DNA of 64,000 bases from a bacterium (lineage in GTDB: Bacteria; Patescibacteriota; Saccharimonadia; UBA4664), in NCBI GenBank assembly GCA_016699105.1, contig CP064960.1, positions 136,727-200,726 on the forward strand, written 5' to 3'. Shown in pieces: positions 1-31,868 of this stretch. Each line of letters starts with the position of its first letter. Positions within the stretch are counted from its first letter, which is position 1. The notes beneath the pieces were generated by a model. The model was given only the letters and a program-made list of their open reading frames with translations, was not told the origin of the DNA and ran no database searches. A program made the translations under genes and the position numbers.

Positions 1-1655
1 ACTGGCAGCGGTGTGGGTGAGGTTGAGGCCGGATGGTAGGGCATATTGGTAAACGCGGTGTTGAGTGTTTGCCAGATTGGTTTAGTAGTATAGGGCAAGG
101 CATCTTCGGCATAGTACCAATAGAAGTAACCTCCTATATAATACGGCAAATTGATATTGAGGCTGTAGTAATAATTTGCAATGTCTTGGGCTTTGGACAG
201 TGTATTGGCAGTAGCCGGGTTGGGCAAACCAATTTCGCCAAACCCAAGTTTGGAATTGGGAAATATGGCGTGAAGCTGTTGCATGAGCGTGGTGACGACG
301 GCGGCAGTGGGCCGGTAATTGTTGCACTGGGTTTCATAGTAGCTATTGGTGACATAGGTGAGCCCTGATTTGACGTCGCTGGGTAAGTATTGATTCGCAA
401 AACTGACGGGGTCGAGCTCGCGGGCTGAACCGGCGCAGCCTGGGTTGTACCACAGTGTTAATTCGCTGCGTTTACCGGCGGCGGCCACTTGATGATAAGC
501 GTCAGTGATTTTGGCAGCCACATCGGTATATGGCCCGGTCCAATCGCCGTTAACCTCATTGCCGATTTCCCAGATGTCGATTTTGGTGCCGAAGGCTGCC
601 AAAAAACTGGCCGTACGGTCGTGATATTGTTGGACGGTTTGAGCGGCCATATACTCAGAATCGCTGAGCTCACCTAAAAGATAGGTATACGGCTGGAGGG
701 CATTGACGGCCGTCGTGTAGTCTGACGGCGTGGTGTTTTCATCAAAGACGATACGGGTAGTCGGCAGGTGACTGAAGTGTTGTGACGAGGCTATGATAGC
801 AGCCGTATTACTGACGTCGTCGGCCGTCACTCCATAGAGTGGATCTGGAACAGCGCGCATACCGGCCGGTGTGCCGGGAGTGGTGGTTGGGGCCGTGCTG
901 GGTGTAGGGGTTGGAGTAGACGCCGACAGAGTTCCGGCCGAAATGTTGGTAAATTGGACGCGGGCATCTTCGTTGTACAAACCAATTTTGCCACTGGTAT
1001 AGGGTCGCTCGGTGTCGGTAAAGCTTGTGATCTGGGTGCCATCGACCGACACAGTGATGGTATTGACGGCGTCTTGGGTTATGACGATGTCATGCCACGA
1101 CGCTATATCAAACACGGTTTGACTACCAGTCTGCAAAAATCGTTGGGCACCAGGATAGGCTGGATCTTCTTTGCCGAGTTCCCAGCCGTTGGGCTTGAGC
1201 GTGAAATAATAAAAGTGGGTATTGTCGGTATAGTTCCAGATGACCCAGGCAGTTTCCCAGGCATTTGGCGCTGTCCCCGTGCGGAGTTGGGTGACGGTGC
1301 GCATTTTGGTGTCTAAGCGCATGGCTCCGGTCAAGGCCGGACCTGTTACCAGCGAAGCATGCGTTTCACTGGCACCTGCGGCTACTTGGGATGCCTCTTC
1401 GAGCCACGACATCGTAGCGTCACTGCCGACTTTAACACAGCCGCCACCGGCATAGACGACGTTCCATTGACCGAGCGCTGTGCCGTCAGCTAGACAAGTA
1501 CCGGTTGCGTAACTAGAGAAGTTGTCCGAAAATACCGTGCTGGCTCGTGAATACAGGGTGATCGTGACGCCTGCTGCTACGACAATCGCCATCACGGCTA
1601 AGGCAAGCCATTTATTGATGCGCGGTACCGCTGTGAGTCGCCGTTTAGTTGCCAA
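1..1655 (-). CDS. Secreted/membrane-anchored glycoside hydrolase (clan GH-A, GH26/mannanase-like) with N-terminal signal anchor and LamG/ConA-like domain; C-terminus runs off window start
   Basis: Hand translation of the minus strand gives a continuous frame. It reads: TTG start ~1655, 'KRRLTAVPRINKWLALAVMAIVVAAGV' TM helix, a LamG-like segment ('WETAWVIWNYTDNTHFYYFTLKPNGWELGKEDP..ITVSVDGTQITSF..GKIGLYNEDARVQF'), a PT linker 'STPTPTPSTAPTTTPGTP', then a catalytic region with 'IDIWEIGNEVNGDW'. The E-x-N-G-x-W motif resembles the GH26 acid/base signature. The ORF tracker does not list it because it is truncated by the window edge. Confidence 0.5.
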   Translation of the reverse strand, partial: MATKRRLTAVPRINKWLALAVMAIVVAAGVTITLYSRASTVFSDNFSSYATGTCLADGTALGQWNVVYAGGGCVKVGSDATMSWLEEASQVAAGASETHASLVTGPALTGAMRLDTKMRTVTQLRTGTAPNAWETAWVIWNYTDNTHFYYFTLKPNGWELGKEDPAYPGAQRFLQTGSQTVFDIASWHDIVITQDAVNTITVSVDGTQITSFTDTERPYTSGKIGLYNEDARVQFTNISAGTLSASTPTPTPSTAPTTTPGTPAGMRAVPDPLYGVTADDVSNTAAIIASSQHFSHLPTTRIVFDENTTPSDYTTAVNALQPYTYLLGELSDSEYMAAQTVQQYHDRTASFLAAFGTKIDIWEIGNEVNGDWTGPYTDVAAKITDAYHQVAAAGKRSELTLWYNPGCAGSARELDPVSFANQYLPSDVKSGLTYVTNSYYETQCNNYRPTAAVVTTLMQQLHAIFPNSKLGFGEIGLPNPATANTLSKAQDIANYYYSLNINLPYYIGGYFYWYYAEDALPYTTKPIWQTLNTAFTNMPYHPASTSPTPLP

Positions 1656-2991
1656 AGATTATTTGTCCTCGACGCGGGCCGTTGCCGGAGGGGTATTGTC
1701 GGGCGCTGGTGGCAGTATTGCCGTTGCCGCCTGACCCGTAATCGTCAGCCCAGACGTTGCCGCTCGCCACATTGCCATCGCTGCCCCAGGTGGCTTGGGC
1801 GGCCACGGGGCCGAAATTACCACCATTGGTCCACCATTGCGTCGTAATTTTGTTGCCCAAGAATCGAACGTTTTTGGCTCCTGGCCGTTCGCCCGCAGCA
1901 TAGAGGACATAACCGGAACCACCAAGGTAGTTGTTTTCGACCAACACATCATTGTAGGAACCGCCATTTGAACCAAATAACGCAATGCAGTCGGTTTGAG
2001 TCGTTATGTGGCCACCATCATCGGGGCTCGGTACAGTTATGTGATTGCGTAAGATTTTGAAGCGGGTTGGGGTGACATTACTCATGCCTTCAGACGAGAT
2101 ACCGTTCAGGTGATAGGTGCAACTGCCACCGGTACCACAGGGTCCATTTTCGCCGTAGTAAAAAATAATCTTATCGATATAATTTTCGGTTATTTCTACA
2201 CCGGGAGCATTTGGTTGAATGCCGGTGGCTTCGAGGCTGATATATGTGCGTAACACCCGATGGTCCTGGCCGCCCAGGAATTTCATGGCTACGTCACTGG
2301 CTTGATTGTCGGCAGCGCCGGTCGAGCCGATGTCACTGTAATGGACATAGACTGAGTAGTTTGTGGCTGTCGAATCATTGAATAAGCCGGCGCCACTGAG
2401 TTTTTGCCGCGAACGGACGCCTCGGAACAGGAATTTTCCGGGAGTGCCTGATACGTAGAAGTCAGCTGCGCTCAAGTCGCGAAATTGGACGACTTTGGTG
2501 CCTGCCGGGACAAGATAGCCGTCGATGGTAGTGTCGGCGGCCAGTGTGCCGCCATGGTTGGACGGCGAATTATTGTAAACGTAATTGCCGGTCGGTACGA
2601 ATTCATCGGGGGCATCAAACCGGAAATAACCACGAGACGGCGCCGCCACCGATTGGAGTTGTTCCTGACCTTTGGATACACCCTGCAGGGTCCACGGGCC
2701 AACATGGGTGAGGGTGAGTTGATCGCCATGGCTGATTGCGCCAGTCCCGGGCGAAGACGTTGGCGCAGGTGTTGGTGTGTTGGCAGTGCTTGTCGTAAAT
2801 GTAACGACACCACTACCGCTGGCTCCAGTGACAGATTGGGCGGTGGCGCCATTTGATAGACTGCCGGTTTCGGGTTCAAAAGCGGCTGTTGGACCGGCGG
2901 CACGAGTGTACACAATGGCGGCGATACCTAAAACGAGCGCTCCCGCCATTAATGGGGCGGCTTGGCGGATGGATGGCTTGGTCATTATCAT
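1645..2991 (-). CDS. Array paralog G1: conserved N-terminal anchor module + PT linker + large C-terminal domain (beta-helix-like repeats near C-terminus)
   Basis: 448-aa ORF. N-terminus is TM 'LMAGALVLGIAAIVYTRAAGPTAAFEPETGSLSNGATAQSVTGASGSGVVTF', then 'TPTPAPTSSPGTG'. C-terminus has 'ENNYLGGSGYVL..LGNKITTQWW' repeats. Confidence 0.6.
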   Translation of the reverse strand: MIMTKPSIRQAAPLMAGALVLGIAAIVYTRAAGPTAAFEPETGSLSNGATAQSVTGASGSGVVTFTTSTANTPTPAPTSSPGTGAISHGDQLTLTHVGPWTLQGVSKGQEQLQSVAAPSRGYFRFDAPDEFVPTGNYVYNNSPSNHGGTLAADTTIDGYLVPAGTKVVQFRDLSAADFYVSGTPGKFLFRGVRSRQKLSGAGLFNDSTATNYSVYVHYSDIGSTGAADNQASDVAMKFLGGQDHRVLRTYISLEATGIQPNAPGVEITENYIDKIIFYYGENGPCGTGGSCTYHLNGISSEGMSNVTPTRFKILRNHITVPSPDDGGHITTQTDCIALFGSNGGSYNDVLVENNYLGGSGYVLYAAGERPGAKNVRFLGNKITTQWWTNGGNFGPVAAQATWGSDGNVASGNVWADDYGSGGNGNTATSARQYPSGNGPRRGQIIFGN

Positions 2992-4046
2992 AATGCTGTG
3001 CCGTCACTCCATTTGTTGTTTGACCAGACACTATTGGCGGGCGCTGTGCCACTAACGTCGTGGTAATAGTTGGTTTCCGGACCGTAAGCACCACATTTGT
3101 TGTTGCTACCACGCTGGAAGATGTTGTTGGTAACCGTGAGGTGATGGGCTTGCGGACCGTAGGGTTTGGTGTCATGGCCCGCGTACAGACAGTAAGCTAA
3201 CCCGGTATTGGCGGTGAGCAATGATTTGTTGAGCGTGGCATAACTGATGGGACCGAAATCACCAAACCACGATACATCACCTGAGCAACCACCCCCGGTA
3301 CCATTAGTGGGTACGTTACAGGAGACTGTTGAATGTTCGATGAGATAGTCGGAACCACCATTCGAGATGAAACCATTGTTGTGCGTAGCACCTTGGACAT
3401 AGGGGTCATGGAGGTAAGAATCGTAAATTTTACAATTTGTCGAGCAGAGCACGTTATGTTGGCCACCTCTGATATCGCTCCGAATGACCGTGATGTTTTT
3501 ATAAGTGACAGCCCCATATGTCACTGACCCGGCATCCACTTCGCTGTCTTGAATCGTTACCGAACCATGAAAAGCGTCAGTGTCGTCGTTGTAGACGACA
3601 GTATTGACGCGGCTGTTTTTGATGACGACATTGGTGGCATTTTGGCCGATATCGAGCCGGTCGCAGTTGTTGACGATTTTAGCGTCGATGATCGTATTGG
3701 CGGCCGTGATGGTACAAGGACCTGTATAGGCGGTGAGGGTGACTCCCGCGGGCACGCCAGTATTAGCTGGTCCTGGCCAGCAGCCGCCCATGCCGTCGGA
3801 GCCATCAGGAATGTGTAACGTTGAGCTAGCACATGCCGTGGGCGAGGTGCTCGGTACGGGTGTCGGGGTGGGAGTTGCACCCGTGCCAAATTTGACGACG
3901 CCACTGCCGGAAGCGCCCGAAATGCTAGCAGTACTAGCGCCGGCGGACAAGGTACCAGTTTCCGGTTCAAAAGCTGCCAGCGGTCCGGCCGCTAGCGAAC
4001 GGGTGACGACATAACCCAATACCATTACTGCGCCCATGACAGCCAA
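2988..4046 (-). CDS. Array paralog G2: N-terminal anchor module + right-handed beta-helix (pectate-lyase-fold) polysaccharide-active enzyme
   Basis: Module 'VMVLGYVVTRSLAAGPLAAFEPETGTLSAGASTASISGASGSGVVKFGTGATPTPTPVP'. It is followed by a Cys-containing 'GGCWPGPANTGVPAGVTLTAYTGPCTITAANTIID' and repeated N-x-x-N/V-x-x-N beta-helix rungs. The TTG start at 4046 lies just downstream of an in-frame TGA that cuts off the 'SRYSWIKLRV' tail conserved in the paralogs. Confidence 0.65.
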   Translation of the reverse strand: MAVMGAVMVLGYVVTRSLAAGPLAAFEPETGTLSAGASTASISGASGSGVVKFGTGATPTPTPVPSTSPTACASSTLHIPDGSDGMGGCWPGPANTGVPAGVTLTAYTGPCTITAANTIIDAKIVNNCDRLDIGQNATNVVIKNSRVNTVVYNDDTDAFHGSVTIQDSEVDAGSVTYGAVTYKNITVIRSDIRGGQHNVLCSTNCKIYDSYLHDPYVQGATHNNGFISNGGSDYLIEHSTVSCNVPTNGTGGGCSGDVSWFGDFGPISYATLNKSLLTANTGLAYCLYAGHDTKPYGPQAHHLTVTNNIFQRGSNNKCGAYGPETNYYHDVSGTAPANSVWSNNKWSDGTAL

Positions 4047-4116
4047 TACGCGTAATTTAATCCAAGAATATCGCGAGAGAGGAGATCAAGCTTATAAGTG
4101 GCATGATCGAATAGTT

Positions 4117-5367
4117 TTATGGTGTTTCCATAGTTGCTAGCCAGGAACCATACGGATAATCAGTGTCATTCTTGAAGAGCAGGCCGTCGTCCCACATGTT
4201 GCCTTTGAAGACAAAGCCGGCTTTGGCGTCGTTGTACGAATCTATGACCCCGTAGCCACCACAGGTGTAGCGGCGCTTGTCGGTAACGGCAATGGTAGTG
4301 CGGTCATTGGTACGAGTACCTCGTTGGAAGACGTTGTTGGTCGACTTGATATTGGTAGCATTGAGCGGGTCATTGTTGTAGGGTTTGCCAGGGTTATCAC
4401 CGCCATAGGAACAGTATCCACCGGTGGTTGCCATATAGAAGTTTTTATCGAAGGTATTGTCGTGGATCGGCGAGAAGTCCGGGTAGCCAGTCTGGTTAGC
4501 GGAACAGCCGGCGTCAGGCGGAAAATCTGGAGCATTACACCAGAAGGTGTTGTGGCGCAAAGTGGCATAGGCTTCAACGCGGGCGGATGATTCATGCGTC
4601 ACACCTGTAGGGTCGCTCAATTGATCGTGAAGGTAGGAATCTTGCAACGTACAATGGTCGCACCACACTTGACGTTTGCCGCCATACATATTGGCGCGAG
4701 TGACCGTGTAGTTGGAGCCTTTGAGACCTTCGCCATTGATATTGTTTCCGAAGTTGATTTCACTATCTTCCATGGTTAATGAACCGCTATCCACGCCGAT
4801 GTTGCTGGCAGTAATTTTGGATTTTCTAATGATGACATTCGCTGCTTGAATTGATAGGTCACAATTAATGGTTTTGGAGTCGATGACGGTATTGGCGGCC
4901 GTGATGGTGCAGCTACCAGTGTAGGCGGACAGCGTCGTACCAGTCGGTATGCCGGTGTTGCCGGGACCAGGGAAGCAGCCACCCCAAGGATCGGGGCCAC
5001 CAGGGACGAACACTTGGTGCCGGCCGGGTAACCACTATTGGTGCGGTTGGTGACATCAGCGGCCGTAATGGTGCGTTTGGTTTGCGGACAGCCTCCAGCA
5101 ACGGGAGTTGCAGTAGGCGTAGGGTGGTGGAGTAGTGGCATTGAATCGCACAACGCCCAAACCACTGGCGCCAGTCACGCTCGCAACAGTGGCACCGGCC
5201 GACAATGTACCAGATTCGGGTTCGAAGGCAGCCGTGGGACCGGCGGCAAATGACGGAAGGGTAACCACATAGCCAAGGATAGCGACGGCTCCGATGACGG
5301 CAACTGCCCTGAGTTTAAACCAAGAGATTCGTGATAAGGAAACGAGGCGAGTGGCCGGCACTGGCAT
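4117..5367 (-). CDS. Array paralog G3 (beta-helix enzyme) interrupted by two closely spaced frameshifts
   Basis: The N-module ORF 5056..5367 ('SRISWFKLRAVAVIGAVAILGYVVTLPSFAAGPTAAFEPESGTLSAGATVASVTGASGLGVVRF') ends in the PT linker. The beta-helix body 4117..5013 starts 'GGPDPWGGCFPGPGNTGIPTGTTLSAYTGSCTITAANTVID'. A third frame (4776..5165) bridges the two, so there are two indels around ~5015–5100. Confidence 0.45.
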
Positions 5368-5401
5368 AACCTTTTTGTTAGTTCAAATAATAGCACAGGA
5401 G

Positions 5402-6514
5402 TTATTGCTGCTGATAGATACGCAGGTAATCAACTTCCAATTGACGGGTAAGGTCAAGACTGGGCAGGGTGAGACCCCAACTGCGCTCCCAATTGTTGTC
5501 CACCATCATGTGCAAAATAATCTGCATGGGGCCGTTTTCGATGGTGGAGCTATTGCCGTTGAACTGCCCGCATTTGACGCCGTTGATATACCAGGCAATG
5601 TAGGTGGGTTGCCAGTCCACGCCAAAACGGACAAAGTCAGTGGAATAGTCTTTGACGGCACAGGCGCCATTATTATTGTCACCGTTGTTGAGCGCATAAG
5701 ACTGCCCGCGGTCGTTGTAGTGATAGGTCATAAAGATGGTATCGGGATCGCCACCGAGGATTTCAACGATATCAATCTCGCTCCGATAGCTAAAGCTCGT
5801 ATCTGTGGGTAGCATCCAAAAAGCGGTGAAAAAGCCGGAAGTGGCGGGGTACTTCATGCGCGATTCGACGTAGCCGTAAGTAAAAGGAAACAAATACGGC
5901 GAACCATTGTCGGCGCGGGGACGAGCGGTCGAAACTAAGCCAGCTTTGTAGTTGCAGCTACCTTGATAGCAGCCAGTGCTGGCATACGGGGGCGAAAGTG
6001 GCTCAGCCACCAGTTTGGCGGTGCCGTTTGATAACCTGACTTGGCTGGGCATGTAGCGCTCACGGCCCTGGTTGAAGGTGCCAGTGCAATCGCCATAGTT
6101 CCAATCGAAACAAGGCGAGAGTTTGGTGGTATCGAGCGTAGTGCCACTAAATTCTTCTGAGTAAGACACTTTCCATGACTTACCACTGGCGGCGGGGGCT
6201 GGAGGTGCCGGATAACAATTGGGCGAGGTGCCAATTTCACCACTGGCGCAGGCTGTGGGAGTAGGCGTCGGTACGGGAGTAGTGGCGGCGGCAAATTTGA
6301 CAACACCCGAGCCGCTGGCACCAGTAACCGATTGCGTAGTAGCTCCGCCAGACAGACTGCCAGTTTCGGGTTCAAACATGGCTAGTGGGCCGGCGGCGCG
6401 GGTCATGACAACGGCTGCCGTGCCTATGATAGCTACGGCCACAATCACGAGCCCAGACTGGCGGCGGGAAAGGCGACTGAGTTTCGTGAGATGGGTAGTG
6501 GTAATTTTTGACAT
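5402..6514 (-). CDS. Array paralog G4: N-terminal anchor module + GH16 family beta-glucanase/laminarinase-like domain
   Basis: The module 'AAGPLAMFEPETGSLSGGATTQSVTGASGSGVVKF' is followed by 'TPVPTPTPTACASG'. The GH16 catalytic motif 'SEIDIVEILGG' (E-I-D-I-V-E) is present. Other GH16 hallmarks are 'YGYVESRMKYPATSGFFTAFWMLP' and the C-terminal 'VDYLRIYQ'. Confidence 0.7.
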   Translation of the reverse strand: MSKITTTHLTKLSRLSRRQSGLVIVAVAIIGTAAVVMTRAAGPLAMFEPETGSLSGGATTQSVTGASGSGVVKFAAATTPVPTPTPTACASGEIGTSPNCYPAPPAPAASGKSWKVSYSEEFSGTTLDTTKLSPCFDWNYGDCTGTFNQGRERYMPSQVRLSNGTAKLVAEPLSPPYASTGCYQGSCNYKAGLVSTARPRADNGSPYLFPFTYGYVESRMKYPATSGFFTAFWMLPTDTSFSYRSEIDIVEILGGDPDTIFMTYHYNDRGQSYALNNGDNNNGACAVKDYSTDFVRFGVDWQPTYIAWYINGVKCGQFNGNSSTIENGPMQIILHMMVDNNWERSWGLTLPSLDLTRQLEVDYLRIYQQQ

Positions 6515-6517
6515 AAG

Positions 6518-7702
6518 TTAGTTTGGGGATACCGTGGCGCCATTATCATATTTGTTGTTAGTCCAGACATTGCCAGTGCGGCCGGAAATATAATCGGTGA
6601 CGGCGCCATAATATCCACATTTACCCGTGGTGCCACGTTGGAAAATATTGTTTGTGAATACAATGTAGGTGGCATTGGTGGGATCGTTGCTGTAGGGCTT
6701 GCCTGCGGTGCCACCGCCATAGACGCAGAACCCATTGCCTGGATTGGCCAGAAACAAGTTTTGGTCGATAGTGGCATTTTTAATTGGCGCAAAATCAGGA
6801 TAACCTGTCAGATCGGCTGAACAACCAAGCTCATCGTTCGGGAATGGCCCATTATAATCGCAGCCGAGAGCATTGTGGCGTAGCGTGAGGTATTGTTCGC
6901 TGCGCACACCTGAGGCATGGGCTAAGTTTGTTTGGTCGGGCCAGAGGTTGGTGCCGTGCATATAACTGTCCTGAATAGTGCAGGTATTACCGCAATAGGC
7001 CGACCGGTTGGTGTGCGTGATCTCAGTGCGCAGGATAGTAAAGTTCTCATACCCTACACCGCATTCGACGGTGCCGTTATTGGGATCACCACAGGCATAT
7101 AGACCGGCCGCGCAGGAAGTCGGACCACTACAGGCTGGCCGCTGGACGGCGTTGTCGATCTGCGAATCCTGAATCGTAAATGAGGCCGAACCACTGTTTT
7201 GAATGACCCCACCCTTGAGATAGGAATTTTTAATCATCAGGCCAGAGGCGCCGGTGCCCACGACCAGCGGACTACAATTAACAATTTTGGAATCAATGAT
7301 GGTGTTCGCAGCCGACACGGTGCATGATCCTGTGTAGGTTGACATCGAAGATTCCGGGGCGTTGGGACCAGTATTGCTTGGACCCGGCCAACAGCCGCCA
7401 AACGGGTCTGGTCCATCTGGTACATTGGAAATAGTGGTGGCGCATGAACCAGCAGTAGGCGATGGAGTCGGTGTAGCCGAAGCTGCGAACTTGATAACGC
7501 CACCACCACTAGCACCAGTAACCGATTGCGTATTGGCTCCGCCAGACAGACTGCCGGTTTCGGGTTCGAAGGCAGCTAGTGGGCCAGCGCCTTTGGCCAA
7601 CAAGACCGTAACGATACCGAGTAGAACAACCACAATTACCACGAGCATCATCTGGTGGCGGTTAAATCGAGGTTGGTAGATCATGGTGATATTTTTTGTC
7701 AC
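6518..7702 (-). CDS. Array paralog G5: N-terminal anchor module + right-handed beta-helix enzyme
   Basis: Module 'KGAGPLAAFEPETGSLSGGANTQSVTGASGGGVIKFAASATPTPSPT'. It is followed by 'GGCWPGPSNTGPNAPESSMSTYTGSCTVSAANTIIDSKIVN' and beta-helix rungs. Its C-terminal half is homologous to G3. Confidence 0.65.
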   Translation of the reverse strand: MTKNITMIYQPRFNRHQMMLVVIVVVLLGIVTVLLAKGAGPLAAFEPETGSLSGGANTQSVTGASGGGVIKFAASATPTPSPTAGSCATTISNVPDGPDPFGGCWPGPSNTGPNAPESSMSTYTGSCTVSAANTIIDSKIVNCSPLVVGTGASGLMIKNSYLKGGVIQNSGSASFTIQDSQIDNAVQRPACSGPTSCAAGLYACGDPNNGTVECGVGYENFTILRTEITHTNRSAYCGNTCTIQDSYMHGTNLWPDQTNLAHASGVRSEQYLTLRHNALGCDYNGPFPNDELGCSADLTGYPDFAPIKNATIDQNLFLANPGNGFCVYGGGTAGKPYSNDPTNATYIVFTNNIFQRGTTGKCGYYGAVTDYISGRTGNVWTNNKYDNGATVSPN

Positions 7703-7713
7703 GTTGGCTAATC

Positions 7714-9026
7714 CTAGTATTGGTTGATACCCATATCTTTGCCATCTGAGGCGGCGTTGCGACCCGGTGAGGCAGTGTTGAGTAAATAACCCAGCCAGGT
7801 ATTGACGGGACCAACATATGAAGGTGTACCAGTGATACTGCCGGTACCCTGGGCGCTACCAGAAGTAAACAGATTGTTAGTGCTGGTAAAGCCGACATTA
7901 TTGCCACCGCCGCCATTACCAATACCTGCCAGGATATTATTGCGAATAATGGTTGTACAAGCGCCACAAGCCGACTTGGAACCAAGTCCTATAGTGTCAT
8001 TTACGAATGTATTGTGCTGGATGATGGAGCCAGAGTCGTGATACCAGGTCATAGCTTCGCCGTGATTTCCAGGAGTGAAAACGTTGTACTCAACGAGATT
8101 GTTGCTCGAGCCATCAGCCATCATGATACCGGCTGCCACATTGCCATTGGGTCCGCCCCGCCGCCGATGAAAAGATTTCCACGAATCGTGACACCTGTTC
8201 CGCCGTAGATTTGGATGGGGTCAGAATGGTAAGGATCTTGATCGAGGATGTTAGTAAAGGTGTTGCCTTCGATAATGACACCGTCGGCATCAGCCCTGAT
8301 GCCGTCAGAATTGCCACCATCGAATAGTGAATTGCGAATCGTGATGCTATTGGTACCGCCCGTGCCCGATACATGTACTCGTCCCGCAACGCAGCTGCTA
8401 CAGGTATTGATATTGACGTGAGTATTGTGATCAAGAAGTAGGTTGTGCCCGGCGGCCGATTCAATATATACAAGATTGGTAAAAGCGGAATTTTTAATGG
8501 TGATGTTGCTGGAAGTTCCAGTGATATCGCCGCCACCAATAGTGAGTCCGTCCAAAGTAAAGCCACTGTCCCCATTGCCAAAACTAATACTCATGACTGG
8601 CGAGGCGCCAGATTGTTTGGTGATGGTAATGGCTTTACTGACCCCGGTAAACTCGCCGTAATTGCCACTGGCCAAGCAGACTACTTGTCCGGCGGTAGCC
8701 GCCGAGACGACGCCGGCAAAGGTGCTGGTTGTGGCATTGGTGGTGCAAGTGATGGGTGCGGCGGTGGGGGTGGGAGTTGGCGAGGAAGTAGTGCCTGCAC
8801 CAAACCGGACGATGCCAGTGCCGCTGGCGCCGCTGATCGACTGGACAACAGCGCCAGCCGAAAGCGTGCCAGTCTCGGGTTCGAAGGCGGCCGTGGGACC
8901 GGCAGCAAAACTGCGAGTGACAACATAGCCTAGCACCATGACAGCACCTACTACTGCCATGGCTCGGAATTTAACCCAGGAATTAGAGCCGAGATTTACG
9001 AGCCGGGTATTGTGCTTTATAAGCAT
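7714..9026 (-). CDS. Array paralog G6: N-terminal anchor module + beta-helix enzyme; one apparent -1 frameshift at ~8150 in a G/C run
   Basis: ORF 8121..9026 carries the module 'NSWVKFRAMAVVGAVMVLGYVVTRSFAAGPTAAFEPETGTLSAGAVVQSISGASGTGIVRF'. ORF 7714..8139 continues the beta-helix ('NLVEYNVFTPGNHGEAMTWYHDSGSIIQHNTF'). The two join at 'ggcggcggggcgg'. Confidence 0.55.
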
Positions 9027-9044
9027 AAGTGGTTCCTAAGTGTA

Positions 9045-10099
9045 TTAATCATGCACTTGAGGTGCTGGTATGGCAAGTCCGGTGTCCTCCCAGACATTAC
9101 CCGAGTAAGCGGAAAGTGTTGATTTGGTGGATAAAAGCACCGTGCAGCCGCCAAAACCTTGGTGTCGGCCGAATTTGTTGCCGGTAATACTGACTCCGGT
9201 GAGGTTCGATAACACTTTGTGCGCCACATTGATGGTGCAACCACCACCGTCGAGCCAGTTATTCGTAATCTGAATATTACTACATGCCTGACCAGCGTCT
9301 TGGGTAATCTGGTAAGCGGCATTACTACCTGACGAATTGGCGAGGTCGATGGTGGTGCCAGTGATGAGAATATTGGCATTACATTCGTAACTTTGGACAC
9401 CGTCATTGTGCGTCTCTCCCCGCCCTGGTTGGGATCGGAAGCAAAGTAAGCTAGGTCATGAATGTATGAATCGCGAATCGTGACGTTGTCGTAGGCCTTG
9501 ACGCCGTCAACGGCGCCGTGAATATTGGCGCGGAGAATCGTGCTATTGGAAGCCCAAATGCCATCCATACAGGCGGTGGCATTGCTGGGGGCAATTTCGG
9601 AATCTTGGAAGGTAAAGTTGGTGGCCGATTCCATGACCCAGAGCGGGGCGGAATTTTGGGCGTTACTGGATGTGCAGGGTTTGGTTCCTCCCCGAATAAT
9701 GGAATTTTTGATAGTAATGTTGGCACCATTGACGCGCACATATCCCCTAATGTCGAGACCAGAAATAACTTGGCCGTTGGTAGAGTAGGTCTGGTCGCCA
9801 TTGACGACGGTGAGCGATGTGCCAGCTGGAATGCCGGTGTTACTGGCTCCGGGTTTGCCACCGGGAGTGGGTGTAGCCGTGGGCGCCGGCGTTGGGCTCG
9901 GTGTGGAGATGGCAAATTTGACGACCCCACTGCCGGAAGCGCCGGATGCTGTCTGGACGGTGGCACTACCGGACAAGATACCAGTTTCGGGTTCGAAGGC
10001 GGCCAGGGGTCCGGCGGCCAGTGACCGCATCACAACGTAGCCTAAGATTGTGACTGCTCCGATGACGACGGCTAAGCGGGGTAAGTTTAACGTGCGCAT
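9045..10099 (-). CDS. Array paralog G7: N-terminal anchor module + beta-helix enzyme; apparent frameshift at ~9425 in 'ctccccgccc'
   Basis: N-terminus is 'LAVVIGAVTILGYVVMRSLAAGPLAAFEPETGILSGSATVQTASGASGSGVVKF'. After ~9425 the 9017..10099 frame becomes implausible. The beta-helix continues in frame 9045..9227 ('HKVLSNLTGVSITGNKF...'). Confidence 0.55.
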
Positions 10100-10124
10100 G
10101 CGTGATTGCCTTTATGCATAAAAA

Positions 10125-11216
10125 TTACGGGTAATTAACTGCTTGGCCGGACGACGTTTTATTATTCGCCCAACGGGTAAAGGTTGCGCCTGTCATAATG
10201 TCATAGTAACCCCATTGGCCGGCCACCAGATTGGCAAACGTATTGTCATAAAACGCAGCGTTAATCACATTTGGATCCATTCTGACGACATAACCGCCAC
10301 CATTGAAATAGTTGCCATATATTTGGGGTGTTGTAAATGAGTCACCTTGGAAAAAGAGGGCAGCGTTTTGATGAGTCCCGTCGAAGCCGTTCAGGTCGAT
10401 TCGATTGAAACGAAGTATTAAGTTGGGTGCATAAAAAACCTGCAGACCATCATTGTGTGACGCGTCGGCTTCGGTGGTACCGGTCAGAGCTAGATCGTGA
10501 ATATAGTTGTACTCAATGACATTGTTTGGGCCAGCCACATGAATACCATCGGCAAATCCAGTGATCTCGTTACGCTGAAGTTGAAAAATGGTACCACCCA
10601 TAGCTTTGATACCGCCGGCGCCGTTATTGAGTCCGGGAACTGATCCAGGTTTCCAGCGGATCGTGGAGTCACTGATTTTGACAATGGCTCCGTCAGCCCG
10701 ACTATTGACACCGCACCAGGTGCCATAGCCACCTTCGATGACGGAATTGGTGACGGTCAGAGTACCGGATCCGTAGAAATCGAGGCAGCCTTTGATGTAC
10801 ACATGGTCGAGTGTAATGTTATCGGCATTGACCTGCAGATAGCCGTACTGAGTGTCGTAATAGGTACCAGCAGGTGCAGCGGCGGCCGATGCTATGGTGG
10901 TGAGGGCAGATGTCGTGCCCCGGTAGCCGACAGTTCCGGCAGCAGGGTAGGTGTTGGTGGAAGGTGTGGTCGACGGTACTGGCGTCGGATTGACCGCGGT
11001 GCCCATACTAAATTGGACAACGCTGCCACCGGACGCGCCGGTGACGGTTTGGACGACGGCATCGTTAGCCAAGGTACCTGTTTCTGGCTCGAACGCCGCT
11101 AAGGGACCGGCCGCCCGGATGAGGGCAACGGCAATGACACCGGTGGCGACCGTGAGGCCGACAACGCCGATGATGGCACGGGACCGGGGCAGGGCTTGAG
11201 GCGTAAGCGTATTCAT
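10125..11216 (-). CDS. Array paralog G8: N-terminal anchor module + right-handed beta-helix (NosD/pectin-lyase-fold) enzyme
   Basis: Module 'VIAVALIRAAGPLAAFEPETGTLANDAVVQTVTGASGGSVVQF', then a PT linker. Beta-helix rungs are 'VIEYNYIHD', 'ILRFNRIDLNG' and 'QIYGNYFNGGGYVV'. Confidence 0.65.
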   Translation of the reverse strand: MNTLTPQALPRSRAIIGVVGLTVATGVIAVALIRAAGPLAAFEPETGTLANDAVVQTVTGASGGSVVQFSMGTAVNPTPVPSTTPSTNTYPAAGTVGYRGTTSALTTIASAAAAPAGTYYDTQYGYLQVNADNITLDHVYIKGCLDFYGSGTLTVTNSVIEGGYGTWCGVNSRADGAIVKISDSTIRWKPGSVPGLNNGAGGIKAMGGTIFQLQRNEITGFADGIHVAGPNNVIEYNYIHDLALTGTTEADASHNDGLQVFYAPNLILRFNRIDLNGFDGTHQNAALFFQGDSFTTPQIYGNYFNGGGYVVRMDPNVINAAFYDNTFANLVAGQWGYYDIMTGATFTRWANNKTSSGQAVNYP

Positions 11217-11236
11217 TGCTTATGCTTGATTATACA

Positions 11237-12358
11237 TCAGGGCTTAGGCAAGACAGCACCCTGGTTGCTGGCCTTGGTTGGATCATTGACATAATTTTGA
11301 TCCCACTGACTCCAACCGACACCGCCTTGAACGTAGGCTGCACCATAACCAGTGTTGCTGAGCCGGTTATTGGTGGCCACGAGATTACTGTAGGGCGAGT
11401 TGAGCAGATTGAGACCCAGCTGATACCCGGATCCCTCCAAGAGGTTGCCCGATATAGTGACGTTATCGATCCGTCCGGCGTAGGTTTGCAAAAATAGCGC
11501 GCCAGTATCATTGCCGGAGCTACAATCAAAGCGGTTATTGCGGACTAAGGCCGTACGACCTGGTGTCGAGCTGGCATCGAAATCGCGAATCGTGAAGCCA
11601 TCGGAGTGGTTGCCGGCGCCACCCGGGTCGCCATAGGCTTTGAGTTGGGTGACATAATTACCCTCGACTACACTCGAGTACGTACTGCCAGTATTCATGA
11701 GCCCGATACCACTGCCGAAGCCGTGAATGTAATTGTTTTTGAGGTCGGCAATACCGATGAAAGCGGTCGTGAAGGCAGCCTCTTGAGCACCCAGAAGTGA
11801 ACCGTCAAATTCGGAGTTGGAGATAGTGACTTTACCTTGGGCAGACTGGCAACCATTGGTGCCGCAGATGTTGGTATTAGTAGTAGTGACCAGCGGGTAG
11901 CCGATGCCAGCTGAAGTCGGCTTGAAGCATGACCGGTCGATGGTGATGTTACCGGCCGAAAGAACGAGGCCGACAGTTATACGTTTATTGGTAATAGTAG
12001 TACCGGCCGGGACATTTTCGGCACCGGTATAAACAGGTAATGAAGCACAATTAAGATCAACACTAGCCAAGCCGGTGTTGGCAGCTGTGATTTGCCAGCC
12101 ATAGAGACTACCAACTGGTGTCGGTGTGGGAGTAGCGCTAGATGACGCCGGAAATTGCACGACGGTAGCGCCATTGGTAACGGCCGTGACCGCTCCCGCC
12201 GACAGCGCGCCCGCTTCGGGCTCAAAAGCTGCCAGCGGACCGGCAGCAAAGCTGCGCGTAATGACGTATCCTAAGACAATTACGGATGCAATAACCACTA
12301 CAGCCCGAAGCCTGATCCAAGACAGTTTTGAGAGCAATATGAGCCGCGTTGTTGCCAT
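11237..12358 (-). CDS. Array paralog G9 (first in transcription order): N-terminal anchor module + beta-helix enzyme
   Basis: Module 'LSWIRLRAVVVIASVIVLGYVITRSFAAGPLAAFEPEAGALSAGAVTAV'. Rungs are 'LKNNYIHGFGSGIGL', 'VVEGNYV', 'LVRNNRFD' and 'ISGNLLEGSGY'. Confidence 0.65.
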   Translation of the reverse strand: MATTRLILLSKLSWIRLRAVVVIASVIVLGYVITRSFAAGPLAAFEPEAGALSAGAVTAVTNGATVVQFPASSSATPTPTPVGSLYGWQITAANTGLASVDLNCASLPVYTGAENVPAGTTITNKRITVGLVLSAGNITIDRSCFKPTSAGIGYPLVTTTNTNICGTNGCQSAQGKVTISNSEFDGSLLGAQEAAFTTAFIGIADLKNNYIHGFGSGIGLMNTGSTYSSVVEGNYVTQLKAYGDPGGAGNHSDGFTIRDFDASSTPGRTALVRNNRFDCSSGNDTGALFLQTYAGRIDNVTISGNLLEGSGYQLGLNLLNSPYSNLVATNNRLSNTGYGAAYVQGGVGWSQWDQNYVNDPTKASNQGAVLPKP

Positions 12359-12398: not shown

Positions 12399-12866
12399 CT
12401 ACTGAGTCGGTTTGTCGCCCTTAGTCAGGCTTTTCTTGGCGCTTGATGCCAGTTTGAGCTTTTTAGGTTGCGGTAATTCGCGGCGTTCAAAGCTGATTTT
12501 GAGTACTCCATCCGCAAAGTCGGCTTGGCCAGATTCGGCATCGACGTCTTTGGGTAAGACGAAGCTGCGGTAATAGCTAGCTTGGGAGGACTCACGGCGC
12601 AGATAGTTGCGGCTGTGTGATTCTTGACTGTGCTCAGCTTTGATTTCGAGGCGGTCGCCATTGATTTGGACGTCAACCTCGGATTCTTTAAACTGCGGCA
12701 GGGCAGTTTCAACGACCAGCCGGCCATCTTCTTCGTAGATGTCAGTCGCCGGGACAGTCAGCCACTGTCCAGCGTTTGTGAGGCCACGGGTAGCTAGACG
12801 ACTCATGCGCTCTTGCATGTCATCGAGCTCTCGGAATGGGTCCCAATTCAATAGAGCGTTTGTCAT
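12399..12866 (-). CDS. Hsp20/alpha-crystallin family small heat-shock protein
   Basis: 'NWDPFREL...' N-terminus and the alpha-crystallin core 'FVLPKDVDAESGQADFADGVLKISFE'. A CIRCE operator sits ~60 bp upstream. Confidence 0.85.
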   Translation of the reverse strand: MTNALLNWDPFRELDDMQERMSRLATRGLTNAGQWLTVPATDIYEEDGRLVVETALPQFKESEVDVQINGDRLEIKAEHSQESHSRNYLRRESSQASYYRSFVLPKDVDAESGQADFADGVLKISFERRELPQPKKLKLASSAKKSLTKGDKPTQ

Positions 12867-12926
12867 AACAATTCCTCCTTGTAGAGATTAGGTTTTAATT
12901 ATTCCGGACTATTTAATTATAGTCCG

Positions 12927-12953
12927 TTGGCACTCAAAGGTCAAGAGTGCCAA
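12927..12953. promoter_or_regulatory. CIRCE-like HrcA operator (perfect inverted repeat TTGGCACTC-N9-GAGTGCCAA)
   Basis: The sequence ttggcactcaaaggtcaagagtgccaa is a 9-N9-9 perfect palindrome. It differs from the canonical TTAGCACTC only at position 3. It lies upstream of hsp20 and overlaps the grpE 3' end. Confidence 0.7.
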
Positions 12954-13415
12954 CTTTAACCATAGCTGGCCTTAATATGGCATCACCGAGCTTGTAACCC
13001 GCGGCCAGTTCGGCAATGACAGTATCGCCTTCACCTTCCCTGGCGACAGCTTCATGCTGATGTGGATCAAAGGGTTGACCGACGCAGTCCAGCCGTTCGA
13101 CACCGAGGTTCTTGAGCACCGCATCAAATTGCGTGCGGATGGCATCGATGGAGGCAGCCCAGGCTGCGTCAATGTTAGCCGGACGGTGCGCAGCTTCGGC
13201 GTCGAAGGTATCGCGAACCGTTAAAAATTGCCGCACGACCGCCACTTTGGCGTAGTTGAGCGACTGAGATTTTCAGTTTCGGCGCGGCGTTTGTAATTAA
13301 TAAATTCAGCCTGAAGCCGCTGTAAATCAATCGTTAATTCAGCAACTTGATCGGTGACATCAGTACCAGATGCATCTTCAGATATTAATTCGGGCTCAGG
13401 ATTCTTTTTAGTCAT
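12934..13415 (-). CDS. grpE: Nucleotide exchange factor GrpE (split by one frameshift at ~13250)
   Basis: ORF 13221..13415 carries the GrpE N-terminal coiled coil 'AELTIDLQRLQAEFINYKRRAE'. ORF 12934..13245 carries the GrpE C-terminal beta-domain '..GQPFDPHQHEAV..VIAELAAGYKLGDAILRPAMVKV'. Confidence 0.75.
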
Positions 13416-13438
13416 TAGGTAGTCCCCTTTCGTTTGAT

Positions 13439-14131
13439 TTAATTGAGCGCTTCGGCTAGCAGGCGACCGGTGTATTCGACCAAGCCGATGACGGGCGAAT
13501 ATTGCTGACGGGTTGGACCAAGAACACCGATATAGCTCCGGGAACTAAACGGTGACTCGAACCGGCTAATAATGAGTGTGGCACCCGACGTCCGGCCAAT
13601 GGGATTCTCCCGACCAATATAAACGGAGATCGGGTCACCCGGAGCAGCTTCGGCCAACCATTCTTCGAGACTATCGAGCAGCCGGGCGACTTCGTAGGCT
13701 TCCCGGCCGCCATAAAACTCCGGATGCTGAAATAACCCGGCCATACCAGACAAATATAGGTTGGGGCCGATGGTACCGAGGCCGAGATTGCCGGTGACAT
13801 GGGCGAGCGACTCTACAGCGTTCTTGATAGCTCGCTCGACTTCGCCGGCAGACTTAACACGTCGAGCCAAAGCTTGCTCGTGCCGGTGATCGTGCATGGG
13901 AGCGTCCATCGAATTGACATAGGCGCGATAGCCTTTGTCGGTAGGTACCCGGCCAGCAGAAATATGAGGCTGCATGATGAGATCAAGACTTTCGAGCGCG
14001 GCCATTTCCGATCTGACGGTAGCACTCGAAGTTTCAAATTGTTCACATAAAGCATTTGAACCCACGGGCTCAGCCGTGCGAGCATAGGTTTCGACAATTG
14101 CGTGGAGGATTTTGAGTTGGCGCGGGGTCAT
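13439..14131 (-). CDS. hrcA: Heat-inducible transcription repressor HrcA (short form)
   Basis: N-terminal winged helix 'LTPRQLKILHAIVETYARTAEPVGSNAL'. It sits next to grpE, with CIRCE elements nearby. Confidence 0.85.
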   Translation of the reverse strand: MTPRQLKILHAIVETYARTAEPVGSNALCEQFETSSATVRSEMAALESLDLIMQPHISAGRVPTDKGYRAYVNSMDAPMHDHRHEQALARRVKSAGEVERAIKNAVESLAHVTGNLGLGTIGPNLYLSGMAGLFQHPEFYGGREAYEVARLLDSLEEWLAEAAPGDPISVYIGRENPIGRTSGATLIISRFESPFSSRSYIGVLGPTRQQYSPVIGLVEYTGRLLAEALN

Positions 14132-24934: not shown

Positions 24935-25882
24935 TTATCCGATTTGTGAGGCATTTTTGTCGAGAAGTGTAACCTGTTGGTTGGTAATGGCCAATTTGAG
25001 CCGCGATCCGATGGGGCGATGGCGACCAGGCGAGCCGGTTTGACTAAATAAAGCCAGTTCATGGACGAGCCGGTGATTGAGCTCATGATCTGGCGCCATA
25101 TGACGCATGGCGGTGACTAAAACTTCGGCGGTTTCGGTTAAGCTGAAGGTTTTGTAGACGGCCACAGGCCAGCGGAATCCGTCGGTAGCCCGGTACGGAT
25201 CGAGCAAAAAGGATAAATCGGTTTCGATGGCTTGATTGAGAGCTGCCACTTTGTCCAGGGCGGCCACATATTGCTGGCGCCAGTCGGCAGTCGCCGCGGG
25301 CAGGAGTTGGTGCCGGACGAAATTGCGGGGATTGGTAGTGTCGGCGTTAGTGGGGTCTTCCCGCCAGTTTAGCTGATGGCTCTGGGCGTAGTGCCTTAGC
25401 TGGGTACGGGCAATGGCCAGCAACGGTCGGATTACCGGCATACCATCGAGCGTGACACCCTGCATAGGCGCTAGTCCCCGTCGCCCAGTACCGCGGGCGA
25501 GATTGAGGAGGCTTGTTTCCAGAAGATCATCTTGATGATGGGCGGTAATGATGGCGACAGCTTTAATTTGCCGAGCTGTTTGGGCAAGCAATTGGTATCG
25601 AGCTTGTCGGGCAGCCGCTTCACTGGCGTGAGGTGACAATTGCGCATGGTTGACGATGCAGCTCAATTCATAGTTCTGAGCGGCTTCAACCACAAACTGA
25701 GCATCGGTAGCCGAATCGGATCTAAGGCCATGATCGACATGAGCGATAGAGAGCCGGTAGCCACTATCAGACGTGGCGAACAGGTCGAGGAGCACCATGG
25801 AATCAGCACCACCAGAAACTGCTAGGAGGTACGTGCCAGGCTGAGGCCAGCTGACGGATGAGATGAGATTGTGCTCGGTCAT
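24935..25882 (-). CDS. tilS: tRNA(Ile)-lysidine synthetase TilS
   Basis: PP-loop 'LLAVSGGADSMVLL'. Confidence 0.85.
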   Translation of the reverse strand: MTEHNLISSVSWPQPGTYLLAVSGGADSMVLLDLFATSDSGYRLSIAHVDHGLRSDSATDAQFVVEAAQNYELSCIVNHAQLSPHASEAAARQARYQLLAQTARQIKAVAIITAHHQDDLLETSLLNLARGTGRRGLAPMQGVTLDGMPVIRPLLAIARTQLRHYAQSHQLNWREDPTNADTTNPRNFVRHQLLPAATADWRQQYVAALDKVAALNQAIETDLSFLLDPYRATDGFRWPVAVYKTFSLTETAEVLVTAMRHMAPDHELNHRLVHELALFSQTGSPGRHRPIGSRLKLAITNQQVTLLDKNASQIG

Positions 25883-26897: not shown

Positions 26898-26972
26898 TGG
26901 TGGCTACGGGTAGATTCGAACTACCGACCAAGAGCTTATGAGTCTCCTGCTCTACCACTGAGCTACGCAGCC
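26898..26972 (-). tRNA. tRNA-Met (CAT anticodon; elongator or Ile2/lysidine type)
   Basis: Minus-strand read: ggctgcgtagctcagtggtagagcaggagactCATaagctcttggtcggtagttcgaatctacccgtagccacca. Cloverleaf with a 7-bp acceptor, GTTCGAATC T-loop and encoded CCA. Confidence 0.8.
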
Positions 26973-27469: not shown

Positions 27470-27546
<77 letters not shown>

Positions 27547-29122: not shown

Positions 29123-29352
29123 ACTTCTTATAGTAGCACTTCAACAAGAATTGCCTGGCCGAATAACTCTTGCTTGCTCACGATCGCCATCAATGACCTA
29201 TCCAGATAGCATTTGCTTGCTCACGAACGCCGACCGCAGAGTAAACACGTTTATGTATTATTACCTACATGAGCTGCGCAACCTTATCTGGTTCGGTCTT
29301 AAAAATAAGCTATATCTAATCTGATATCCGTGTATAATAAGTGCGTTACCGC

Positions 29353-29427
29353 GGGCCGTAGCTCAGCGGTCAGAGCAGGCGGCTCATAACCGCTTGGTCG
29401 CAGGTTCAAATCCTGCCGGGCCCACCA
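29353..29427 (+). tRNA. tRNA-Met/Ile2 (CAT)
   Basis: ..gggccgtagctcagcggtcagagcaggcggctCATaaccgcttggtcgcaggttcaaatcctgccgggcccacca. The acceptor pairs perfectly only if one C is added to the 5' 'gggcc' run. This fits the homopolymer under-calling seen elsewhere in the window. Confidence 0.7.
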
Positions 29428-31040: not shown

Positions 31041-31745
31041 TTACTGAGCGGGGGTGGGCGTCACTTCTGGCAAAGTGGTTGGCGACACTGTAGCTACGGG
31101 CGTAACACTACTACCACTGGTCTCGAGAGCGGCATTGATGGCATCACGCAAGTCGGCATAGGAGAATCCTTTGGTGGCTACACCGTCAATAAAGATCGTG
31201 GGGGTACCGGCGACACCCAAGGCAGTGCCGTCTGCAGTGTCTTGATCAATGATGGTCTGGAACTGCTTGTCGGTGACAGCCTTCTTGAACTTTTCGACAT
31301 CTAAACCGAGCTCACCAGCGTAGTTAGCAAAGGTATCTAAGGGGCTTGATTGATTTTCCCAAGCAGGTTGGTTGGTGTAGAGCTTGTCGTGCATTTCCCA
31401 AAACTTTCCTTGGTCACGAGCGGCTTCGGCCGCTTGCGAGGCAATTTGAGCGTTGGCATGTTGGGCAAGCGGGAAATGGCGGAACGAGAATATAATTTTG
31501 CCAGCAAAGTCGGCTTCAATTTGTTTCATATCCGGATAGGATGTGGCACAGGCTGGACATTGGTAATCACCAAATTCAACGACCTGAACCGAACCAGTGC
31601 CACGAGTGGGTGTAGATTCTCGGGTGAGCTTAGATTTGTCACCGACCGGTTTGGGATCGGCGCGGTTGGTGAGGACGAACAGGCCGATGAGGCCACCAAT
31701 CACCAGCGTTAATATAATTCCCATAGTTTTGGCTTCACTCGACAT
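31041..31745 (-). CDS. DsbA-family thiol:disulfide oxidoreductase (membrane-anchored thioredoxin fold)
   Basis: N-terminal TM 'MGIILTLVIGGLIGLFVL' and active site 'YQCPACA'. Start set at the internal Met. Confidence 0.75.
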   Translation of the reverse strand: MSSEAKTMGIILTLVIGGLIGLFVLTNRADPKPVGDKSKLTRESTPTRGTGSVQVVEFGDYQCPACATSYPDMKQIEADFAGKIIFSFRHFPLAQHANAQIASQAAEAARDQGKFWEMHDKLYTNQPAWENQSSPLDTFANYAGELGLDVEKFKKAVTDKQFQTIIDQDTADGTALGVAGTPTIFIDGVATKGFSYADLRDAINAALETSGSSVTPVATVSPTTLPEVTPTPAQ

Positions 31746-31868
31746 AACAGTAGCTATCCCCTTTGAATAAGTAACTGCATTATTGTAGCACCTTTGTCTG
31801 AGATGCAACTTGAGAAAAACCGGCGCCTATGATGGCGCCGGTTTTACGGACAGTTATGATAAATGGTC

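Follow-up and report, generated by a model that had tools for sequence, protein, structure and literature searches.

Exported proteins that share one short module are known from several systems. Dockerins (PF00404) are short non-catalytic modules joined by a flexible linker to many glycan-active enzymes, and the LPXTG/sortase, PEP-CTERM/exosortase, type IX secretion system (T9SS) and YSIRK signals are short, conserved, lineage-restricted tags found on many unrelated exported proteins of a genome. Carbohydrate-binding modules (CBMs) of family 35 (CBM35; PF16990) adjoin glycan-active catalytic domains via linkers rich in Pro and Thr (PT linkers). Saccharibacteria and other bacteria of the candidate phyla radiation have tiny genomes and live attached to host bacteria, the Saccharibacteria as epibionts, and to our knowledge little has been established about the arrangement of enzymes on the surface of such bacteria or about the way in which they attack the envelopes of their hosts or draw food from them. 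Here we analysed a 64-kb window (the whole stretch of 64,000 nucleotides from contig CP064960.1 of a member of the Saccharimonadia) in which nine consecutive genes encode the same 35-residue N-terminal tag between a hydrophobic leader and a putative enzyme. Variable enzymes that share a signal peptide, a short tag and a linker follow a general logic that is already familiar. By profile comparison, this tag is a CBM35-derived stub whose homology covers the first ~28 residues of that domain, and the pattern of its sequence variation indicates that it tracks the genome and not the cargo.

The nine genes, G1 to G9, are co-directional on the minus strand at 1645-12358 and tightly packed, with spacings of -11 to +34 bp across the array, as established from the listing of open reading frames (ORFs) and their translations. 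Every product runs from a basic N-terminus through a hydrophobic stretch of 16-20 residues to the 35-aa tag and a Pro/Thr linker, and 15 columns are invariant when the first 100 residues of the nine N-termini are aligned. The consensus of the tag in the array is AAGPxAAFEPETGxLSxGAxxQSVTGASGxGVVxF. Motif and hidden Markov model (HMM) scans in all six frames found nine copies in the window, all inside the array and with HMM E values of 5e-9 to 5e-19, which bears out a preliminary description of this DNA that had reported nine consecutive minus-strand genes with one N-terminal module. Two finer traits ascribed there to the module as a whole belong to a part of the array only: the SW(V/I/F)KLRA tail is found in four genes (G2, G3, G6 and G9) and not in the other five, and the R/P-S-F/L leader ending in five and not in the remaining four. 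The genes and their modules are as follows.

1645..2991, minus strand: G1, 448 aa; module at 2797-2901; divergent cargo with weak transitive beta-helix links
2988..4046, minus strand: G2, type-A beta-helix cargo; module at 3888-3992
4117..5367, minus strand: G3, type-A beta-helix cargo; module at 5143-5247
5402..6514, minus strand: G4, GH16 glucanase-type cargo; module at 6293-6397
6518..7702, minus strand: G5, type-A right-handed beta-helix cargo; module at 7487-7591
7714..9026, minus strand: G6, beta-helix cargo, 437 aa when intact; module at 8802-8906
9045..10099, minus strand: G7, beta-helix-related cargo, 351 aa when intact; module at 9914-10018
10125..11216, minus strand: G8, beta-helix cargo; module at 11010-11114
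11237..12358, minus strand: G9, beta-helix-related cargo; module at 12152-12247, with 3 residues deleted in the hairpin turn

The tag segment has no significant Pfam, NCBIfam or PDB sequence match. Neither CBM_35 nor CBM_6 of Pfam matched any of the ten window proteins (G1 to G9 and the adjoining G0) at E ≤ 0.1, no NCBIfam sorting-signal model matched (the sole NCBIfam matches were weak GH16-type ones for G4), and a word-indexed protein search with the 91-aa N-terminus alone found nothing. A profile built from the nine copies, in contrast, gave 51 matches at E ≤ 0.001 among 1.84 billion representative proteins, most of them with the tag at residues about 20-95, directly behind a hydrophobic leader. 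Pfam identifies repeats of CBM_35 in two of these, P0043 and P0044 (E 4.5e-27 and 1.5e-19), and a tag-like stretch, YEAE.G.LsG.A......SGG..V, opens every repeat; P0034 has the same repeat pattern (from our own HMM scan, no Pfam run), and P0004 and P0018 are apparent low-complexity matches. When 68 module sequences were compared with the CBM35 repeats in hhalign, module columns 9-36 fell on CBM35 columns 2-31 of 129 with a probability of 96.6% and E 6.8e-10, figures that are somewhat inflated because the repeats had themselves been recruited by the module profile. Independently of this, the weak PDB matches of a broad profile all lie at the starts of CBM35 domains (7byv 305-333, 2wz8 9-38).

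Residue conservation follows the same correspondence. Among 68 diverse relatives, the set behind all leader and tag counts given here, E11 is kept in 65, E13 in all 68, S30 in 66, G31 in 62 and G32 in 48, and their counterparts in the CBM35 repeats are the invariant E4, E6 and S23 and the nearly invariant G24 and G25. The N-terminal glutamates of CBM35 are among the residues that take part in its calcium site. Altogether, the conserved tag residues E11, E13, A21, S30-G31-G32 and V35 are conserved residues of the CBM35 N-terminus, and the tag shares with CBM35 and CBM6 the ExE strand, the conserved Ala, the ASGG turn and the V strand that follows, as well as the position next to glycan-active catalytic domains behind PT linkers. 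The segment that the preliminary description could assign to no named domain can thus be named through this homology.

The tag differs from CBM35 and CBM6 in extent: it comprises 2-3 of ~11 strands and about 30 of 120-130 residues, with no complete beta-sandwich, and the Pfam models pass it over at the threshold given above. Since ~100 residues of the sandwich are absent, the tag is not a CBM, and it is too short to be a sugar-binding module. CBM35 holds a conserved structural calcium site built from conserved acidic residues (PMC5408701); with the rest of the sandwich gone, the tag can form neither a ligand site nor the full Ca2+ site. AlphaFold 2 (AF2) models it in two sequence contexts as a beta-hairpin with a predicted local distance difference test (pLDDT) score of 73-79, preceded by the leader helix and followed by a low-confidence linker, and in more than 90 proteins the tag passes directly into a PT, Gly or Pro linker. 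A match to a known CBM had been named in advance as evidence against a novel shared module; the homology is real, and it extends to a fragment only. The tag is therefore of interest as a conserved domain fragment, the first CBM35 hairpin, that survives as an independent unit. We found no published description of it in the literature searched, and it appears to be undescribed.

Mean synonymous divergence between the nine tag copies (pS, the proportion of synonymous differences) is 0.69, near saturation, and the corresponding non-synonymous value (pN) is 0.20, so that the copies are old and the peptide is under purifying selection. A recombination cassette or recent gene conversion was rejected on the same pS together with a DNA identity between copies of 60-81% and a longest shared exact run of 21 nt. 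These data also bear on the idea of a functionless remnant, in which an ancestral CBM35 was truncated and its stub stayed alike through duplication and gene conversion only. Such a history would suit a stub that is clearly CBM35-derived, and the neighbours G4 and G5 do have the most similar tags (81% nucleotide identity, the 21-nt run, pS 0.43). Most pairs, however, are synonymously saturated and yet 60-80% identical as peptides, and the same key residues recur in distant lineages and on 15 cargo families; we regard a functionless remnant as very improbable.

The tag is combined with many kinds of cargo. The 91 module proteins gathered from public data fall into 15 unrelated cargo clusters, which include beta-helices, GH16, a GH5 cellulase, a beta-propeller phytase (E 1e-77), a PF14099 polysaccharide lyase, an F5/8-C plus GH39-like domain and several families without a Pfam match. 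Three tag variants, AGP(L/T)AAF, ATP.. and AG(T/S)PI, are each found on 4-7 cargo clusters. On this wider scale the proposal of one module with interchangeable enzyme heads is supported; in the window itself most of the pattern comes from eight of the nine genes, which are ordinary duplicates of one beta-helix family.

Comparison of G5 with its relatives separates the history of the tag from that of the enzyme. Against the tags of its paralogues in the same genome, the G5 tag is 56-89% identical, over cargos that range from unrelated to 44% identical. Against orthologues of its own cargo in other genomes, the figures are reversed, with 26-51% identity in the tag (one case of 60%) and 68-82% in the cargo; a closely related metagenome-assembled genome (MAG), with a tag identity of 83%, is the expected exception. 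Because the paralogues are older than the lineages, their uniformity within a genome requires concerted evolution or repeated replacement of leaders. This implies an advantage in having all exported enzymes of one genome bear the same tag; dockerins and sorting signals behave likewise.

Our preferred reading, which we hold tentatively, is that the tag is a common handle by which a genome-specific partner retains or sorts enzymes at the cell surface. A Sec-type signal peptide with an (S/T)-x-A site followed by A or S would be removed by signal peptidase, and the 35-residue tag would then form the mature N-terminus, with its ExE strand, ASGG-turn hairpin and V-x-F, joined to the enzyme by the flexible Pro/Thr linker. 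One genome-specific partner (a surface component, or a processing or retention factor) would recognise the tag and hold or sort all tagged enzymes alike at the cell surface; from there the enzymes would act against glycans, whether of the host or of the environment. What recommends the tag for study is that it occurs on at least 15 exported enzyme families, is under purifying selection, is uniform within each genome and sits in the slot that a dockerin takes elsewhere; a single peptide could serve as bait for whatever machinery or receptor deals with all of the exported degradative enzymes. That the enzymes plausibly attack host or environmental glycans fits published speculation on the essential envelope proteins of cultivated Saccharibacteria; essential envelope proteins with glycan-binding or glycan-degrading domains, including dockerin, have been reported for Southlakia (PMC10633639).

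The likeness to dockerins is close in several respects. Both are short non-catalytic modules in the same position, with a flexible linker, on many glycan-active enzymes, and the tag is uniform within an organism and divergent between organisms, as dockerins are. A dockerin can also stand in the place of the tag: among homologues of the G5 cargo are proteins whose N-terminal slot holds a type I dockerin, PA14, DUF4082 plus fn3, Big_7, a CBM-like domain or nothing, and PF00404 was found on the tag-less homologue P0090 with E 1.3e-5. The tag nevertheless lacks the duplicated Ca2+-binding EF-hand-like repeat, a Pfam match and an identified cohesin-like partner, and it is predicted to be a beta-hairpin and not helical. 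The cohesin/dockerin-type docking suggested in the preliminary description accordingly stays an analogy.

For the leader, the evidence points to a cleaved Sec signal peptide. In all of G1 to G9 a K/R-containing n-region precedes the hydrophobic stretch of 16-20 residues, as in Sec signal peptides, and among the relatives position -3 is S, T or A in 57/68 and I, V or L in 11/68, position -1 is Ala in 67/68 and position +1 is A or S in 65/68. Because this is the classical signal peptidase I pattern, a cleaved leader is more likely than a membrane anchor, and the transmembrane (TM) anchor originally proposed is displaced. An uncleaved signal anchor would keep the hydrophobic segment in the membrane, the tag next to it and the PT linker as a stalk for surface display. 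The length of the stretch, which AF2 models as a 21-residue helix, would allow this, and in the natural fusions P0095, P0083 and P0077 (see below) a TM hairpin has the corresponding segment as its second helix; the near-invariant AxA motif is nonetheless hard to explain if it is never cleaved, and a PT linker of 12-20 residues is short for a Gram-positive-type wall. We consider such an anchor unlikely.

A stronger competitor, though still doubtful, takes the tag as part of the export and maturation leader with no partner at all: a pro-region that travels with the signal peptide and is perhaps trimmed later. As an acidic, export-compatible early mature sequence, it may delay folding or aid Sec translocation or signal-peptidase processing. 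The tag always begins 6-7 residues past the predicted cleavage site, even after the internal second TM helix of the fusions, its acidic ExE lies near that site, and leader and tag have apparently been exchanged as one unit across cargo families, all of which this explanation would accommodate. Export compatibility, however, does not need ~35 residues with 8 positions invariant or more than 90% conserved; a lineage-specific sequence that is alike on all paralogues is left unexplained; and G0 and other exported proteins of the window manage without the tag. Were the tag only an export pro-region, the array would be an ordinary expanded family of secreted beta-helix enzymes.

Other signal types were set aside. 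A lipoprotein signal was rejected for want of a Cys, and a Tat (twin-arginine translocation) signal was rejected for the window, where RR occurs only in G4 (LSRRQSG) and the other eight leaders have single or separated basic residues. Three distant tag proteins, P0049, P0030 and P0026, do have Tat-like n-regions before the tag (SRREFL, SRRQALL and TRKEFLGF), and the tag may therefore be used with more than one route of export. A gene for a TatC-like protein is present in the related MAG (L005 24-656). The FEPETG segment resembles the LPXTG of sortase substrates superficially, and a sortase-like PETG motif was rejected too: the segment is N-terminal, after the hydrophobic segment, and in relatives its T position is S, T, N or Q and its P position P, A or T, so neither is conserved. 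More generally, sortase, exosortase and T9SS signals are C-terminal, whereas this tag is N-terminal, right after the signal-peptidase site.

The cargos of the array are putative enzymes: by fold assignment, eight would be polysaccharide-depolymerase-type beta-helices and one a GH16. G4 matches Pfam Glyco_hydro_16 (PF00722) at E 3.7e-20 and 72.6 bits, against a cut-off of 22, as the preliminary description had it, with weak NCBIfam beta-glucanase-type matches far below their cut-offs. A parallel beta-helix fold of the right-handed (pectin lyase-like) type was assigned to G2, G3 and G5 to G9, and weakly to G1. G8 matches Pfam Beta_helix (PF13229) at E 6.7e-14, and P0001, the intact form of G6, matches Beta_helix at E 1.9e-9. 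The cargos of G2, G3 and G5 are 37-42% identical to one another by BLAST (G2-G5 40% over 376 aa; G3-G5 42%), and G6, G7, G8 and G9 join this group at 28-32% (G7-G8 32% over 349 aa; G9-G8 30% over 340 aa). G1 has no Pfam or PDB match; it is tied to the beta-helix group weakly and only through its orthologue P0033, 40% identical, which matches beta-helix members at E 2e-6. The preliminary description had given it a divergent beta-helix-like domain. PDB sequence searches gave nothing useful for G0, G1 or G9. Since eight of the nine genes come from one old beta-helix family, the array is mostly the product of ordinary tandem duplication and divergence.

Compared with solved beta-helix enzymes (phage tailspike depolymerases and, from bacteria, polysaccharide lyases, hydrolases and epimerases: PL6, GH87, GH110, GH28 and AlgG/AlgE), the beta-helix cargos are 7-17% identical and differ in having no Pfam or CAZy-type family match and many conserved cysteines. 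The G5-type cargo family has 493 homologues at E ≤ 0.001, of which the 120 listed are 54-81% identical. It contains about ten invariant cysteines, no Pfam family covers the cargo domain, and it is common in Saccharimonadales; bacteria outside this group apparently have it too, behind N-terminal modules of other kinds. At 31041-31808 the window encodes a DsbA-like thioredoxin that is extended at its N-terminus. Such a protein fits the formation of disulfides outside the cytoplasm, which would be required by beta-helix enzymes that are exported and rich in cysteine.

The nature of the cargos also bears on a host-targeting signal of the RxLR/PEXEL kind, motifs that follow the signal peptide in eukaryotic parasites, which would send the enzymes onto or into the host cell of the epibiont. 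The analogy lies in the order of signal peptide, short conserved motif and effector domains of various kinds, and in the epibiotic parasitism for which the lineage is known. Nothing points to translocation, however, and as glycan enzymes of extracellular type with many conserved cysteines the cargos are likely to act outside cells; we consider this explanation very improbable.

We looked for the partner that a common surface handle would require. No cohesin match was found among the ORFs scanned with Pfam (about 12-44 kb of the window; the part beyond ~44 kb was unscanned). A Cys-initiated CBM-like domain recurs near tag genes elsewhere, adjoining one in L006 (1581-2414) and lying near one in L012 (7819-9393). 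Its family, which also includes P0181 and P0182, starts AAC..(LP.DKG), lacks the YEAE/SGG N-terminal strands and has conserved Cys pairs; it has no Pfam match except a faint one to GH115_C, and it also occurs in proteins with fn3, Big_7 or dockerin. An hhalign comparison based on four sequences places the domain on CBM35 columns 41-123, with a probability of 62% and E 7e-5. Three divergent clusters, represented by P0095, P0083 and P0077 and seen in two independent assemblies (L010 10001-11917, L011 326-2242), fuse it to the tag: a signal peptide, the Cys-initiated CBM35-like domain, a TM helix and a ~45-aa cytoplasmic loop are followed by another TM helix, which bears an AxA site, and then by the tag, a linker and a beta-helix enzyme. 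The N-terminal half of P0095 gave only 2 matches as a query.

Because columns 41-123 are the part that the tag lacks, and because of these fusions, we considered strand complementation of a split CBM35, in which the tag would give a surface CBM35-like domain its missing first strands and so be tethered. The complementary columns (2-31 for the tag), the fusion through a TM hairpin to tag and cargo and the adjacency in L006 and L012 speak for it. Several results go the other way: in the AF2 model of the fusion the tag is still an isolated hairpin, and its confidence is no different from that obtained without the domain; the domain is also found tag-free, together with fn3 and dockerin (P0182); in L012 it belongs to a multidomain protein that is soluble and has no membrane anchor; no such gene is present in the 64-kb window or the 20-kb syntenic locus; and the hhalign support is modest and comes from 4 sequences. 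We judge this mechanism improbable, and the association between domain and tag may simply reflect a shared substrate. Also unlikely, though less so, is a minimal docking tag in the full sense, by which a genome-specific surface receptor, possibly a CBM35-like domain without those strands or another envelope protein, would capture every tagged enzyme and so provide these ultra-small epibionts with a cellulosome-like, exchangeable set of depolymerases at the host contact zone. Were this true, a split carbohydrate-binding fold would have given rise to a protein-protein docking module of a new class.

Several points count against a common handle with a genome-specific partner. No partner of the tag was identified, and the only recurrent neighbour, the truncated CBM35-like protein, is missing from both loci just named and is, in L012, a soluble multidomain protein of one genome; for the natural fusion, the tag was modelled by AF2 with no greater confidence. 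The motif is the sole basis for leader cleavage, and a stretch of 16-20 residues possibly allows an uncleaved signal anchor. Old gene conversion, combined with selection for some shared property that need not be binding, could also make the tags of a genome uniform. Finally, the taxonomic range of the tag is drawn from one narrow-profile search (51 representatives) and one cargo-based search.

Within that scope, the tag is restricted to uncharacterised proteins of uncultured organisms, which are Saccharimonadales wherever a source is named, and all tag proteins that have any name are annotated 'hypothetical protein'. The named cargo homologues, among the matches listed, are from Saccharimonadales or Saccharimonas. 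For DNA-pattern scanning the broad tag alignment proved too variable, and a narrow pattern matched only one species genome (3 loci) and two metagenome contigs. Among species-representative genomes, a close form of the module was found in a single one, a MAG of an uncultured Candidatus Saccharimonadales. In this related MAG the array is syntenic, after hrcA-grpE (L005 5864-8742), and comprises nine or more module genes whose order is partly rearranged, one lying between grpE and hsp20; two further tag copies stand alone on other contigs, among them a G9-like copy on L006. The nearest related genome thus keeps the array in the same place, in agreement with the prediction of a tandem and not scattered family. 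More distant Saccharimonadales have single module genes and no arrays.

In the window, the array starts 40 bp after hsp20 (12399-12866), directly downstream of the heat-shock cluster hrcA-grpE-hsp20 (12399-14131). No terminator-like site was found between array genes in a search for consensus matches only, and the array is a tandem family that is probably co-transcribed. Two further features complete the locus.

12916..12944, minus strand: best sigma-70-like promoter match, upstream of hsp20; 11/12 positions, a consensus match only
1..1655, minus strand: G0, cut by the window edge; own leader (..YSRA before STVF), LamG-like domain, PT linker

The preliminary description had counted ten paralogues; nine genes are related, and G0 is no paralogue of G1 to G9. 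Its translation confirms that it lacks the tag module and has a hydrophobic leader of its own. The LamG-like domain matches Pfam 3keto-disac_hyd at E 1.8e-5 and 25.3 bits, just below the cut-off of 26.8. At the C-terminus lies a probable clan GH-A-like TIM-barrel hydrolase, with EIGNE and GFGEIG motifs recognised by sequence reading only; G0 has no PDB sequence relative, and the GH26-like label given to the hydrolase was not confirmed.

Four array genes, G2, G3, G6 and G7, are frame-broken in the window. G6 (at 8155), G7 (at 9417) and grpE (at 13269) each have a 1-bp deletion in a 5-nt homopolymer, and these three are all the indels between the window and short-read contigs that are 98-99% identical and that carry intact G6 (437 aa), intact G7 (351 aa) and a restored grpE. 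Homopolymer deletions missing from short reads are the error pattern of a long-read consensus, so the breaks in G6 and G7 are probably assembly errors and both genes intact in the organism; on these grounds we rejected the view that they are real pseudogenes. G8 is encoded as an identical protein on four short-read contigs. G3 has two frame breaks (~5123-5143 and 5016) and an intact orthologue in L005, and the start region of G2 is broken (~4075-4104), the listed ORF beginning inside the signal peptide and a probable ATG lying near 4104. Elsewhere atpA is divided into two ORFs (37203-38703). Frame breaks are thus many; the three that could be set against short-read contigs are typical of an unpolished long-read assembly, and gene calls across the window are to be read accordingly.

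The rest of the window is housekeeping in character (Hsp20, GrpE, HrcA, LepA, Ddl, MurJ, FtsH, TilS, ATP synthase and the DsbA-like protein). Three tRNA-Met genes with a CAT anticodon lie within 2.5 kb (26898-26972, 27470-27546 and 29352-29427), presumably of the initiator, elongator and tRNA-Ile2 precursor types, with tilS nearby at 24935-25882.

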